Part shown: one piece after another, positions 11,683-45,546 of the stretch | Layout: each line of letters opens with the position of its first letter | Numbering within the stretch: the first letter of the stretch is position 1 | Source of the DNA: a virus | Taxonomy: Duplodnaviria; Caudoviricetes | Strand: one strand, 5' to 3' | Length of the DNA: 64,000 nt | IMG/VR virus record: IMGVR_UViG_3300030061_001386 | Location: 1-64,000 of that record | Position numbers and translations under genes: made by a program | Notes under the pieces: model-generated | What the model saw: the letters and a program-made list of their open reading frames with translations, nothing else | Told to the model about the DNA's origin: nothing | Databases searched by the model: none

Positions 11683-12102
11683 TCATTCATTGAATTGGGT
11701 TAAAAATGTTGGACTCAATGCGTTTTCGTTTGGTGTAACTGTTTGCATAAATGGAGTCTGAATCTCCCCATAGTTTTGTTGTTGGAATGTTTGATTAAAC
11801 TGACGTAATGAATCTCTAACTCTCTTACGGTTTTCTTCTTCTCTAGCCTTTCTGTTCCAATACCCGTCAATGTTTCTCTTTAGCAAGAACTCTTCTATTA
11901 TGTCATTCAAGAACAAATCGAATACTGCCTTCATAATCATAATGAGTCCTACGGTAGAAATACCAAATAGAACTGCATGAGAGAATCCCCCATATGGAAA
12001 GTTAACTCCTACCATTTGGTAAAAGTAAATATTAACACCACTCATTGCTCCTACGAACAATATGGTCATAATTAATCTTGTATCTGTATCAATTGATGGC
12101 AA
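11683..12102 (-). CDS. Membrane protein, 2 TM helices plus charged coil
   Basis: Two hydrophobic spans; likely TTG start at 12102 after GGAG (track start 12144). Confidence 0.6.
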   Translation of the reverse strand: MPSIDTDTRLIMTILFVGAMSGVNIYFYQMVGVNFPYGGFSHAVLFGISTVGLIMIMKAVFDLFLNDIIEEFLLKRNIDGYWNRKAREEENRKRVRDSLRQFNQTFQQQNYGEIQTPFMQTVTPNENALSPTFLTQFNE

Positions 12103-41414: not shown

Positions 41415-41888
41415 TTATTCTTGACCTCCGTTAGAAGGTAAAGTAGATACAAGACTGTCATGAGTACCGTCCCAAGTGCCTGACTTAGACATACCAACAG
41501 CAACGCTGTTAATATTCTTCAGTACACTTGAAGCCCACGCCTGACCATTAGCATAGTGCTTAACTTTGCTTCTTTGGTTAGGTAGCATCAATGCTCTGAT
41601 AGCATCTCCGCCATTATCGAAAGCCTCAGCCATTGCATTAACTGCTTCAGTTACTGAAGCAACAACTGCCTGACCCTCAGCAGGAAGAGAGTAACCTCTC
41701 TGTCCATAAGGAGCGTTTGCGTAGTCCCTTGCAATCTCTCTAATAGTAGAGGAAATGCGAACTTGCCTTGATTCGTTACTTGTTCCTTTTTCAATCATCT
41801 TGCGGATAGTTGCATTATCTGCTTTATCCACTGTCTTGTCTGCGTCTAGCCATGCTAGAGTAGTTCCTGTAAATTGCGTCCATTCCAT
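41415..41888 (-). CDS. Hypothetical early protein, paralogue B
   Basis: Similar to 39476..40012; GGTGA upstream. Confidence 0.65.
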   Translation of the reverse strand: MEWTQFTGTTLAWLDADKTVDKADNATIRKMIEKGTSNESRQVRISSTIREIARDYANAPYGQRGYSLPAEGQAVVASVTEAVNAMAEAFDNGGDAIRALMLPNQRSKVKHYANGQAWASSVLKNINSVAVGMSKSGTWDGTHDSLVSTLPSNGGQE

Positions 41889-41955
41889 TTATATCACCTG
41901 TTAAGATAGATAGGTTTTCTCAAACCCTTCTAAGCAATATTATGTTGGTTATATC

Positions 41956-41997
41956 GGTATATGGGGTCTCTGCTACAAAGTGCCACAACCATATGGT
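41956..41997 (-). promoter_or_regulatory. Palindromic element copy 5 plus TATA box
   Basis: ggtatatgggg...acaaagt-N6-accatatggt. Confidence 0.7.
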
Positions 41998-42070
41998 AAT
42001 AGAAATAAACGAAGGTTTGTGAAAAAACGACTGTCGGATGGCAAGAGGGAAAATGTGTAAATATTTACAC

Positions 42071-42096
42071 AAGCATATGGTTGGTACGTTACTTTG
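42071..42096. promoter_or_regulatory. Palindromic element copy 6 (core plus right arm)
   Basis: aagcatatggtt-N8-actttg. Confidence 0.55.
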
Positions 42097-42142
42097 GGAA
42101 GTTAAACCCCAATAAGATGACCCGAAGGCCAAATTATCGGAT

Positions 42143-42403
42143 TTAACTCCATCTGTCGTTAACGCTGAGTTCGGTAACTGAATAGGGTAGGTTAGTTAGT
42201 ATATTTTCAATTTCTATCCTTCGTGGTCTACCACTTCCTCGCATTGCTCCGTTCAATGTTGCTAATTCCTTAGTTAGTAAAAGTATGACTCTATCATTGA
42301 GACGCTTGCATTCTGCTAATGCAACTCTTTCTCTCTGATACAACCCTCTCGATATTTTACCATCTTCAGTATTCTTATTCACCTGATATATCACGCTTGA
42401 CAT
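42143..42403 (-). CDS. Small early protein
   Basis: Leaderless ATG about 23 nt from the TATA box of element 7. Confidence 0.55.
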   Translation of the reverse strand: MSSVIYQVNKNTEDGKISRGLYQRERVALAECKRLNDRVILLLTKELATLNGAMRGSGRPRRIEIENILTNLPYSVTELSVNDRWS

Positions 42404-42423
42404 GGTATATACTACAAAAAATA

Positions 42424-42498
42424 GGTATATGTAGGGTACTGTTCACAAAGTATTGTACCATATGGTGGGGCTACTTTGTCAGAATCACCCCATATATC
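42424..42498. promoter_or_regulatory. Palindromic element copy 7, divergent promoter
   Basis: ggtatatgtaggg...acaaagt-N5-accatatggt-N6-actttgt...ccccatatatc; genes start on both sides. Confidence 0.75.
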
Positions 42499-42518
42499 AG
42501 ATAAGTGCGATATATAAT

Positions 42519-42704
42519 ATGTCAAGACTTATTGAAGGCAAGGTTTACCCTTATGAGTTAGAGGTTGGTCACTCTAAATCAGGTTCACACCAAGTATTAG
42601 TAATCAAAAGCCTAAAGGTCAAAGGTGATGACTTAGCCAAGGCATTAGAAGAGTTGCATTCAGCAATCAATGTATTCAATGAAATACTAAACCAAAATAA
42701 TTAG
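42519..42704 (+). CDS. Small early protein (MSRLIEGKVY...)
   Basis: ATG about 22 nt downstream of the right-hand TATA box of element 7. Confidence 0.55.
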   Translation: MSRLIEGKVYPYELEVGHSKSGSHQVLVIKSLKVKGDDLAKALEELHSAINVFNEILNQNN

Positions 42705-42708
42705 ATTC

Positions 42709-43150
42709 CCATATGGGGCTGAAAGTGGATTGGATGAAATCACAGGATTTATCCCACTCTAGGATTTGTCAGAACGTTTGTTCTTGTATCCTCTCTAATC
42801 TCAACGACATATACTCACTATTCTAGAACAGTTGTGTATAATTACTCGGTTGAGCATGATTGAACAACAAACTTCCCACTGCTTAGAGAACGAAAAAATA
42901 TCACCGTTCACCGAAGCCCCATATATTTCACATTCTTGGTAGACCAATTCGCCCTATAAACGGCCAGAACTTGGGACTACTACTTTCTGTAAATAACGTA
43001 ATGAAAAAAGCGAAAACGCAGGTAATAGAGAGGTAGCCGAGTACACAATTTCGGTGTGTACCAAAACCGTAACCGAGGTTCTGAGTAAACGTAACTTGCT
43101 AGCGTAGACGTTTACAATAAGAACCGTCAAGTCGTGGGACTACTTTCTAT
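42709..43150 (-). ncRNA. Putative structured non-coding RNA(s)
   Basis: No ORF of 60 aa or more; promoter element 8 points into it; atatggggct/agccccatat closing stem; several hairpins. Confidence 0.4.
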
Positions 43151-43164
43151 TAACTGTATTTTTA

Positions 43165-43204
43165 GTATATATGGGGATGCCGACAAAGTGGCCTACCATA
43201 TGGT
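43165..43204 (-). promoter_or_regulatory. Palindromic element copy 8 plus TATA box
   Basis: gtatatatgggg...acaaagt-N5-accatatggt. Confidence 0.7.
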
Positions 43205-43309
43205 TGTAATTTTACAATAGAAATAAACTCGGCGGAGGTGTTCGCAGAGGTGGCAGGGATATATATACCGAATCGGGGATTTTAGTATTGTCAGCGAGTG
43301 TCATTCATT

Positions 43310-43790
43310 CGCATGTTTATCCTAATGATATATTTAATCAACACCTTATCTTAGATACACAACCTTTGACACCTACAAATCAATACAATTTATTGGGTAT
43401 AAACTACCCTTCCCATATAGTATAATATAATATACTAATATTAGTATGGTATAACATATAATTAATATCTATATTGTAACAGTCTCTGATTCTGCTTTCG
43501 TTTATCCTCGTTTATCTAGTCAAATGATAAATGGGAACGCTAGAAAAGTGGATTTCTGAGTCATATAGATAGATTTAGTATATTCATTTATCATTTATTA
43601 TTATTATACATATATTATATCTCATACATTCACACTCAATATCTACTATCACCTACTACTATTATTATTATAGGAGCATGGTGATAAACGTGATAAACGA
43701 TAGATGAATAGGAAAATCTGCGAATCCTAAATAATTTCGCAGAATAATGTTTATCATTGGCCTGTATAATTGGCCGATAAACGACATCAC
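43310..43790. other. Candidate replication origin
   Basis: About 9 GATAAA(C/T)(G/A) iteron-like repeats in both orientations, interleaved with very AT-rich tracts, at the coding-strand switch. Confidence 0.5.
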
Positions 43791-43809
43791 ACTCAACAAT
43801 TTATGGAAG

Positions 43810-44710
43810 ACGAGAAATGCGTTTGGCATACTTAGCGGTATGTCATCTGACAAGCGAAGTAGTGACTTTAGGAGGACTACCATATCCGAATAGAGGAATG
43901 ACGGAGTGACAGAGTATTGGCATAAGTTGAGAATTGTAGGTTACTTACAGTAATTGAACAGATAGATACAGGAGTTCGCCCTTCAAACAAGATGAGGACA
44001 AGCCCTACTTCGGTAGGTGAGTTTGACTTTTGTGAGATTGAATACCTAACCCTTGGGAGTTGTCCTTGGGTTGCTTTGCGCTATAAAAAAGAGCAGTCGG
44101 TATTGCGGTAAATATCATCAATGTGTTACTTCAGCATATTACATCACCTCCGAGTAAGACGGCATAGTACGTCTGTTCACCCTACACATCACACTCGCAA
44201 GAGTAAGGCGTTCAATTGCATAAGTCCTGACGAGGCAATAAGAACTTAATGAAGACAAAACCAGTTGCGGTGCAAAGTTTTCACCTTATTCTCAACAGTA
44301 GAGTTTACTGAAATAAAAAAGACAAATCGAGGTGGATTAGATTTCCATCCAAAGCAGTGATTAAATGACCTGCCCAATCTTGAATTAATTTTCGAGTATC
44401 AGTAATGTGGTTTTCGCCCATGTCTTTCTCTACTATTCACACTCAAAGTACAAGGTTTTTACTTCCTAAAACTATATTTGATTGGGGCTGATTACCCCAA
44501 CTTAACTGAGGCTCAACCCGACATCATGTGTCGGAAAATCCTATTCATAGGTCTTACTCAGAATAAGATAGTTTATCCTTGTGCGTACAAATGGTGTTGG
44601 GTAGCCCTCAGTTAGTTCTGCTAGGGTAACATCTAAGAGTTGGGTTTTGATTAGGTAATAAATTATGGTCGATTGAGCATCGTAGGTAATTTTCCCAACT
44701 AATCACATTC
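43810..44710 (+). ncRNA. Putative large (about 0.9 kb) structured ncRNA
   Basis: ORF-free; C(UUCG)G and GNRA tetraloop hairpins on the + strand; multiple long-range helices. Confidence 0.55.
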
Positions 44711-44731
44711 AAAGAAAGGAGAGAAATAAAA

Positions 44732-45013
44732 ATGAAAATAAGTAAAAACGGATTTGTAGAAAACAAGACATACATACACATGATAACTGATAGGTATCAT
44801 ACTCACATGAAAGTGTCAGTATTTGATTCGCCAAACTTAGGTGGAATGATTTTACATAAAGAACGGGATGTTACAACAAGTAACAAATCGAAGATATATA
44901 AATGGGCTAGAGAGAATGGATATCCTGTATATCATTGGAAACAGGAAGCATTCATGTCGCCCTATATTTATTCACCAAGTATCGCTGAACCAATTGACCC
45001 AAGGGGATATTGA
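44732..45013 (+). CDS. Hypothetical protein
   Basis: AGGAG upstream; first gene of the + arm. Confidence 0.6.
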   Translation: MKISKNGFVENKTYIHMITDRYHTHMKVSVFDSPNLGGMILHKERDVTTSNKSKIYKWARENGYPVYHWKQEAFMSPYIYSPSIAEPIDPRGY

Positions 45014-45015
45014 AA

Positions 45016-45546
45016 ATGAACATATTTGTATTAGACAACTGCCCTAGAGAAAGTGCTAGAATGATGGCAGACAAACACGTAGTAAAAATGCCAACTGAAA
45101 GTTTACAGATGATTTCAACAATACTAAACTTGTATGGATTGAAGAGTCCTTACAAACCTGTAATGTTAAATCATCCTTGTACCATTTGGTCAAGAGAGAC
45201 AAAACAGAATATGCAATTCTTACTAGACCATGCAGATGAGTTGTGTAAAGAGTACACACGTAGATATGGTAAAGTTCACAAAGTCGAACTCTCAATGAAA
45301 GAGTTTGCAGAAGAAATAGAGAAGGTTCTAACCTTGTTACCTGATGATGGTTTAACCCCATTTGCAGTAGCAATCAGTGAGAATCAAAAATGCAGAAGTG
45401 CAGTGGAAAACTTTGATAGTTTATCAACTGTTGAGAAGTATAGAGCATATTACATTCACGACAAGTATTGGTTTGCAACATGGAGGTGGCCGTTAAATCC
45501 ACCTTCTTGGTATGCCAAACATGTGAATCAGTATGCTAGGTTTTAG
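45016..45546 (+). CDS. Pyrimidine-dimer DNA glycosylase (T4 endonuclease V-like)
   Basis: MNIFVLD..P..SA...DKHVVKM..E..Q...YKP...NHPCTIW...EY..RYGK.H family pattern. Confidence 0.8.
   Translation: MNIFVLDNCPRESARMMADKHVVKMPTESLQMISTILNLYGLKSPYKPVMLNHPCTIWSRETKQNMQFLLDHADELCKEYTRRYGKVHKVELSMKEFAEEIEKVLTLLPDDGLTPFAVAISENQKCRSAVENFDSLSTVEKYRAYYIHDKYWFATWRWPLNPPSWYAKHVNQYARF

Follow-up and report, generated by a model that had tools for sequence, protein, structure and literature searches.

A conserved, modular, plus-strand non-coding RNA family ahead of the replication block of magroviruses

We analysed the first 64 kb (hereafter the window) of a 92,721-base IMG/VR virus record, IMGVR_UViG_3300030061_001386, whose completeness is estimated at 94%. 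Its genes switch strand at 41888/44732: the leftward genes, which include portal, tail tube, terminase and an ATP-dependent ligase, end at 41888. The rightward genes start at 44732, and among their products are a homologue of pyrimidine-dimer glycosylase, a class II ribonucleotide reductase, ThiF and JAB-like proteins, a TFIIB-like factor, an RFC-like clamp loader and a second ATP ligase. Between the two sets lies a divergent region of 2.8 kb (41889-44731) that is poor in open reading frames (ORFs), in which a first-pass annotation made from the sequence alone had proposed a giant non-coding RNA (ncRNA) of about 0.9 kb. We found that this region, at the head of the rightward replication block, contains a conserved, covarying, plus-strand, non-coding RNA family of magroviruses that is built of modules bounded by a short motif. 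The source of the window is a magrovirus, a tailed virus of Marine Group II archaea, because two ATP ligases (one within the structural block) occur together with TFIIB-like and RFC genes, and the same genes bear out the earlier view that the DNA comes from an archaeal tailed virus. Magrovirus groups A and B fit, for which Philosof et al. 2017 (PMC5434244) describe a two-ligase layout and an archaeal-type replication set.

The region had been called ORF-free, which holds over a wider span than was claimed, with no ORF longer than 86 amino acids in 41889-44731. A recoded stop hiding a gene was ruled out because stop codons of all three kinds fill all six frames of 43400-44760 (26-37 per frame). 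The longest ORFs inside the structured region are of 38-48 amino acids, a Pfam search of four small ORFs gave no match, and the insertions and deletions seen there in relatives have lengths that are not multiples of three. The 38-amino-acid minus-strand ORF at 44305-44421 is disrupted in the relative L009 by a 20-nucleotide (nt) deletion. The stops in six frames, the lack of Pfam matches and the broken ORF together led us to reject a hidden protein-coding gene.

Modules bounded by a junction motif

Six close relatives (L002, L004, L005, L009, L013 and L014) were collected through the flanking proteins and one metagenome pattern scan; four exact or degenerate pattern scans of viral contigs yielded no record beyond the three viral ones already among these six, and a distant blastn search against a phage collection gave no match. 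The stretch is a row of plus-strand units and not one RNA. Every unit is bounded by the motif (A/T)TCACACTC(AA), of the general form (A/T)TCACAYTC(AA), and TCACACTC occurs at 43630, 43787, 44189 and 44437, always on the plus strand. The first copy spans 43630-37 and the second 43787-43794, with a CTCAAC part at 43792-97; the third (44189-44196) is a deletion breakpoint in relatives, and the fourth (44437-44444) is followed by a conserved run of five to seven T at 44456-60. A fifth copy with one mismatch, ATCACATTC (44702-44710), is directly followed by the ribosome-binding site GGAGAG (44718-23), with the ATG at 44732. The same arrangement of motif copy and ribosome-binding site is found in L002, L004, L009, L013, L014, L018, L020 and L022, the last three being more distant loci described below, and the spacing between the first junction motif and this site ranges from about 640 to 1100 nt across relatives. 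We also considered the motif as a genome-wide promoter signal and rejected this, as CACACTC occurs 9 times in the 92.7-kb record and the four copies at 43631-44438 are its sole cluster.

Units are gained and lost between these boundaries. The optional cassette at 44197-44436 (plus strand; module C) is present in the window, L005 and L009 and is missing in four of the six close relatives spanning the site; in these four (L002, L004, L013 and L014) blastn and alignment place the gap exactly between two TCACACTC copies. Its identity to the window is 95-97% in L005 (about 14-313) and L009 (3527-3870), against about 82% in their flanks, and this excess suggests that the cassette was recently exchanged between strains. 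L005 and L009 also carry two additional small modules, and in L014 the middle of the last module differs. Within the cassette, CUGACGAG resembled a hammerhead by eye and was dismissed after an Rfam scan at E <=10 gave no such match.

This layout bears directly on the proposed structure. All the complementary pairs listed in the first-pass annotation are found at the positions given there when the sequence is read directly: tggcatac/gtatgtca (43824-31/43838-45), gttgagaat/attctcaac (43926-34/44288-96), gtaattgaac/gttcaattgc (43950-59/44210-19), the hairpins cctac-TTCG-gtagg (44004-17) and actc-GCAA-gagt (44193-204), ttgggg/ccccaa (44482-87/44495-500), taactgagg/cctcagtta (44503-11/44606-14), ccgaca/tgtcgg (44518-34) and agttggg/cccaact (44638-44/44694-700). 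The local hairpins are kept in relatives, where compensatory changes are seen, and so are gaacagat/gtctgttc and tgtagg/cctaca, which had been listed as alternative or pseudoknot pairs; of the candidate pseudoknot aggacaa/ttgtcct, 5-7 of 7 pairs are kept and one covaries. The three long-range helices of 9-10 nt did not survive the comparison and are at chance level, about 1.5 perfect 9-nt complementary pairs being expected per 900 nt by our own arithmetic. The arms at 44210 and 44288 fall in the 240-nt cassette missing in L002, L004, L013 and L014, attctcaac is replaced in L009, and cctcagtta is replaced in L002, L004 and L013. A single 0.9-kb RNA, which needs the 3' arms of 43926/44288 and 43950/44210 in an optional cassette, is therefore not upheld. 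The alternative offered at the time, two adjacent RNAs split near 44320-44480, came close: the stretch is indeed divided, into a row of motif-bounded modules instead of two RNAs.

Core RNA and leader module

The core RNA (module B) occupies 43795-44188 of the plus strand, about 394 nt, and is supported by RNAalifold predictions and pair counts, distant homologues, and contigs of RNA libraries covering 43806-44188. Its 5' domain (43795-43934) contains a hairpin at 43825-44 with the invariant loop UUAGCG and is closed by pairing of CTCAAC from the 5' junction motif with GTTGAG at 43926-31. A variable hairpin at about 43866-43905 differs in length between relatives, being long in the window and L014, short in L002 and reduced to CUC-UUCG-GAG in L009; the UUCG hairpin at 44004-17 has a shorter stem, CCUC/GAGG, in L002 and L009. 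Two long-range helices, TGTAGG/CCTACA (43935-40/44181-86) and TGAACAGAT/GTCTGTTCA (43955-63/44171-79), close a central multi-branch domain. The 3' domain (44045-44188), which includes GGCATAG at 44161-67, is highly conserved: between the window and L009 the identities over alignment columns are 101/145 in the 5' domain, 85/114 in the centre and 113/119 in the 3' domain, the adjacent protein gene, at 78% DNA identity, lying below the last of these.

RNAalifold on six core sequences predicted 114 pairs, with 96.6% of cells paired. Twelve of the pairs are double-changed, compared with 3.5 +/- 1.5 in column shuffles (none of 500 reached 12) and 0-3 in slid controls. Reading the same helices on the minus strand lowers the paired cells to 83.5%, and the core shows 95 G-U cells against 6 A-C cells, which bears out the earlier suggestion, drawn from UUCG loops and G-U pairs, that the RNA is encoded on the plus strand. 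We found no support for a loop-loop contact of UUAGCG with CGCUA, as CGCTA is present in only 6 of 10 cores. As a separate observation, 44141-44153 of the core carries AUCACCUCC, identical to the conserved 3' end of 16S rRNA; the likeness is probably a coincidence, since L022 and L018 do not keep it.

More distant homologues were sought in 80 viral loci fetched using an alignment of homologues of the neighbouring glycosylase-like protein. In these loci nhmmer with the core alignment identified L022 (E 4e-6) and L018 (E 2e-4), and with the alignment of the last module (module D) it identified L020 (E 6e-4). A degenerate pattern was derived from a block common to L022 and the window. Of the 11 viral stretches that it matched, 8 were new, and R1, a model of the core 3' domain, supported six of these eight with E values from 5e-11 to 1e-6 (L100, L099, L102, L101, L095 and L098; L099 and L022 are the same contig). 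At E <=1 R1 gave no match for L096, L097, L018 or L020. The distant homologues occur in viruses whose neighbouring protein is about 56-61% identical. Applied to 596 Gb of genome contigs, the same pattern returned 16 bacterial stretches, about the number expected by chance for 18 specified bases, and R1 supported none of them at E <=1; the pattern scan and the R1 test of its matches thus gave no evidence of a cellular copy, the metagenome-assembled genomes of the hosts not having been searched with the model.

In the R1 alignment 93% of cells are paired, against 36-53% in slid controls, and 16 of 27 pairs are double-changed, with a covariation score of 0.42 against 0.145 in shuffles (0/500). 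The C-UUAGCG-G loop is found in 10 of 10 lineages with differing stem sequences, and in 8 of the 10 it is flanked by at least six ungapped pairs, a count that does not depend on any model. Equally independent of the model, the long-range helices GUAGG/CCUAC and GAACAG/CUGUUC become AGGGG/CCCCU and AAGAAC/GUUUUU in L099, L100, L101 and L095, and both can form in all eight members that have the ACAGUAAU anchor (L018 and L020 are without it). The distant cores are longer, 555-605 nt, and keep the UUAGCG loop, the GGCAUAG block and the covarying long-range closing helices. In L099, L100, L101 and L095 about 200-400 nt separate the core from the first long plus-strand ORF downstream of it, and in L018, L020 and L022 additional motif-bounded modules reach the ribosome-binding site. 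Automatic alignment of the 3' domain with the distant sequences (MAFFT followed by alifold) failed, giving 5 predicted pairs.

Module D (44445-44700, plus strand) is a leader of several hairpins that abuts the ribosome-binding site of the first rightward gene, ending about 20 nt upstream of it in all 9 lineages examined. It has 56 predicted pairs, 12 of which are double-changed (4.2 +/- 1.5 in shuffles, 0/500 reaching this number; 0-3 in slid controls). Covariation is seen in the helices 44482-87/44495-500 and 44518-23/44529-34 and in the CTGAG/CTCAG pairing: TTGGGG/CCCCAA becomes TTAGGG/CCCTAA in L009 and TTAAGG/CCTTAA in L014, and CCGACA/TGTCGG becomes CCAACA/TGTTGG and CCAATAC/GTATTGG in relatives. 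The terminal hairpin AGTTGGG/CCCAACT (44638-44/44694-700) is invariant in the close clade and appears as AGTCGGG/CCCGACT in L020 and AGTTAGG/CCTAACT in L022, where it is followed by a tail ATCACA(T/A)TC and then the ribosome-binding site. R1 weakly matches 44600-44715 (E 0.037 and 0.005), so that the 3' end of the core and the end of module D may be diverged copies of each other. With the ribosome-binding site only a 3-bp CUC/GAG pairing is predicted.

RNA libraries and known RNAs

Part of the stretch is found in twenty public runs, of which six are RNA libraries. We examined Logan contigs of four RNA runs from three studies, two of which (X6 and X16) come from one sample; overall these contigs cover the core at 43806-44188 and module D at 44442-44712. 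Run X17 gave 43806-43996 of the core with other pieces at 44304-44454 and 44455-44679, X6 gave 43824-44164 and 44442-44665, and X16 gave 43871-44151 and 44517-44672. In X19 the core portion, 43818-44188, is part of one 674-nt contig in which it is joined directly to 44437-44712 and then to 45013-45031. This contig represents a strain variant and not splicing, because it is collinear with a cassette-less genome of the L004/L013 type. In three of the four runs the core contig has greater depth than that of module D, depth being no basis for ranking the parts. No contig of these RNA runs falls on 43148-43756 or on most of 44714-45400, gaps that carry no weight as evidence. Two further contigs, of 180 and 243 nt, from X6 and X16 align only at 44068-44113, over 46 bases with 3 mismatches, and have unlike flanks; one of these flanks retains CCTAACCC at the same distance, which suggests a further diverged core homologue in the same sample. 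Taken together, the contigs establish presence in RNA libraries and are not proof of a discrete transcript.

The first-pass annotation could assign the RNA to no family, and this was confirmed by Rfam at gathering score, which gave no match over the whole window. At E <=10, Rfam 15 returned for 43100-44900 two matches that fall far short of the cut-off, MIR2119 (E 1.8) and snR69 (E 5.7), and nothing else, in a test that covers GOLLD, ROOL, group I and II introns, RNase P, SRP, riboswitches and hammerheads. For six distant homologue loci Rfam returned only two sub-threshold miRNA matches, and ARAGORN detected no tRNA or tmRNA gene in 41800-44800. The covariance model of the manA RNA motif (RF01745), likewise an orphan structured RNA of marine viruses, had no match at E <=10 in the whole 92,721-base record, and manA was also absent from the Rfam results for 43100-44900 and for the six distant loci.

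GOLLD and ROOL are large ornate RNAs, often borne by phages or prophages, that have been studied by cryo-electron microscopy (10.1101/2024.12.08.627333). The magrovirus RNA is like them a large multi-helix ncRNA of a prokaryotic virus with conserved loops and junctions, whose function and protein partner are unassigned. It differs from them in lacking a covariance-model match even at E <=10, in its smaller size (about 400 nt here, 555-605 nt in distant relatives), and in belonging to an archaeal virus, where it stands at the head of an operon in tandem modules bounded by a short motif. Hou et al. 2016 (PMC5069720) present Tan1 as an abundant 229-nt ncRNA assigned to Marine Group II archaea. 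As far as that description goes, Tan1 resembles the magrovirus RNA in being a structured ncRNA found in marine metatranscriptomes, on contigs of Marine Group II type and outside any Rfam family, and differs from it in its length of 229 nt and in being assigned to the host and not to a virus; the two were compared by description only.

A third comparison concerns position. In bacteriophages, lambda nut and HK022 put are early-operon leader RNAs that act on the transcribing polymerase; the magrovirus RNA resembles them in being structured and in opening an early or replication operon, on whose strand it lies. Unlike it, nut and put are short (tens of nt) and bacterial, and there is no sequence likeness. 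We know of no RNA-based antitermination in archaea. Our literature search found no paper on an ncRNA of magroviruses or of other viruses of Poseidoniales.

Possible functions and the upstream control region

About 25 nt upstream of the core a plus-strand palindrome, GGCC-TGTATAATT-GGCC (43759-43775), holds a TATA-like box at 43765-70. Its arms change together in relatives, to TGCC...GGCA in L002 and L004 and to TGCC...GGTA in L013, and L022 has GGCAC-TATAAT-GTGCC farther upstream of its core; the palindrome is a candidate archaeal promoter or operator. The reading we favour, which we hold to be probable, is that a modular leader transcript is cut to yield the core as a stable viral ncRNA. The modules would be transcribed rightward as a single precursor, with the TATA-like box as one candidate start, and the junction motif would mark the sites at which the precursor is cut. 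Once cut out, the core would be an abundant and stable RNA that acts in trans, and the last module would stay on the mRNA as its leader; the invariant loops (UUAGCG, GCGCUAUAAAAA and GGCAUAG) would be likely contacts for a host or viral partner. We also put forward, tentatively and as a speculation more doubtful than this reading, an 'RNA operon' in which tandem structured RNAs are punctuated by the cutting signal (A/U)UCACAYUC and the freed, highly abundant core of 400-600 nt uses its invariant loops to act on the host in trans; it could, for example, serve a host RNA-binding factor as decoy or scaffold. If true, magroviruses would provide the first example of a large functional ncRNA class in an archaeal virus, together with a new punctuated form of RNA processing in archaea.

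Several points weigh against the favoured reading. The pair counts were made on the same few, closely related sequences from which the structures had been derived, and the R1 alignment was fitted to its model. Two hairpins of the 3' domain differ in order in the distant group, so that the covariation of R1 helices 1-2 is perhaps partly non-orthologous; what is safely orthologous there is only the hairpin before ACAUCACCU and the GUCG/CGGC helix. A model of the 5' domain, R2, reaches only the close clade (6 matches among 23 sources). Folding energy, a criterion that the first-pass annotation had set for its own refutation, also counts against it: relative to dinucleotide shuffles the core (43795-44200) has z -0.53 on the plus and -0.42 on the minus strand (100 shuffles), no better than shuffled sequence, the values being -1.63 and -1.15 for 43810-44710 (20 shuffles) and -2.27 and -2.80 for 44440-44715 (200 shuffles). 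The TATA-like box is at the right distance only in the close clade. The contigs give no strand, no ends and no reliable abundance, an RNA library may hold DNA, and the X19 contig, in which the core is joined to the first gene, would suit an uncut leader just as well. Cutting at the motif, the promoter and the partner are things that we only infer.

The rival that this contig recalls takes the whole stretch as an uncut, cis-acting 5' leader of the rightward replication operon, whose folds would govern read-through of transcription, stability of the mRNA or translation of the first gene, with no stable RNA set free. We give it a minor share of our confidence, on the grounds that the structured stretch in every case immediately precedes the first rightward gene and lies on its strand, that module D ends at the same short distance from the ribosome-binding site in 9 of 9 lineages and that the X19 contig is unbroken from the core into the first gene. 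Oligo-T acts in archaeal termination, and the conserved T run at 44456-60 is a possible regulated archaeal stop signal. What such a leader would serve is not constant, however. The first gene encodes a 93-amino-acid protein in the window, a protein bearing a GAGTGKT motif in L022 and the glycosylase homologue in L004, L009, L013 and L014, and a gene-specific sensor is unlikely because of these differences. In addition, modules are gained and lost as whole units, the 3 bp mentioned above are the only alternative pairing found that would mask the ribosome-binding site, and in three of the four runs core and module D are separate short contigs of differing depth, with the reservation that depth cannot rank parts.

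Two other explanations would do away with a functional RNA. The stretch could be a DNA-level element, such as a replication origin, a packaging site or a protein-binding array in the divergent control region, and it does adjoin a segment of 27% G+C (43300-43760), with a cluster of GATAAAC heptamers (43315-43782) and the minimum of cumulative GC skew in the region. This is very improbable, because the helices depend on G-U pairs: compensatory changes retain G-U-rich helices, which is possible only as plus-strand RNA. UUCG hairpins vary in stem length and keep their loop, the structured stretch is found in RNA-library contigs, and the heptamer cluster lies upstream of the core and not within it. 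A neutral spacer or decayed coding sequence with chance helices would suit the weak folding-energy z-scores and the unconserved, chance-level pairings of 9-10 nt; we find it harder still to credit, given that conservation of the 3' domain is far above that of the neighbouring gene, that covariation exceeds controls in the core, the R1 alignment and module D, and that homologues exist in viruses as remote as those of the distant group.

Large structured RNAs without assigned function are known in bacteriophages, and our search turned up no description of one in an archaeal tailed virus. Neither magroviruses nor their hosts are in culture, yet both are very abundant, magroviruses being among the most abundant archaeal viruses of the surface ocean, and a conserved, strongly represented viral RNA is a rare handle on host takeover that can be made in vitro without culture. 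The modular layout and the junction motif predict RNA ends at the motif, and the invariant loops offer defined targets for structure determination and binding; defined multimers are known from ornate RNAs of this size.

The gene that follows the leader in the window (44732-45013) encodes 93 amino acids, has no Pfam family and is 91% identical in L002; it is missing in L004, L009, L013 and L014, where the glycosylase homologue comes directly after the leader. In L022 the GAGTGKT of the first gene product is a nucleotide-binding motif. Further left, the control region contains two small divergent ORFs, of 86 amino acids at 42143-42403 (minus strand) and 61 amino acids at 42519-42704 (plus strand), whose DNA is 71-94% conserved in relatives and which have no Pfam match; they may encode small regulators.

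The remaining observations concern the non-coding DNA upstream of the core. At 42816-43140 contigs of X6 and X16 (325-326 nt) share the same ends and have no mismatches, and X19 covers this non-coding segment partially. A direct repeat of 23 nt lies within it (42959 and 43122), and L002 and L004 have part of the segment replaced; its folding z is -1.6 on both strands, and it may be another RNA. The segment 43300-43790 is AT-rich (27% G+C), lies at the minimum of cumulative GC skew and bears seven GATAAAC heptamers in both orientations between 43315 and 43782, namely at 43315, in tandem at 43500/43510 (minus) and 43683/43692 (plus), at 43749 and at 43776. GATAAAC occurs 26 times in the window, against 12.5 +/- 3.2 expected (0/100 shuffles reach 26), and the segment is a candidate replication origin or operator array. 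Finally, the palindrome CCATATGG is present in 8 copies where 0.66 are expected (0/100 shuffles reach 8), four of them in the control region at 41989-43203 and the others at 11990, 39389, 40084 and 41302. An insertion or deletion of about 70 nt in relatives (41997-42068) falls between two of these copies, and the palindrome may be the binding site of a regulator.

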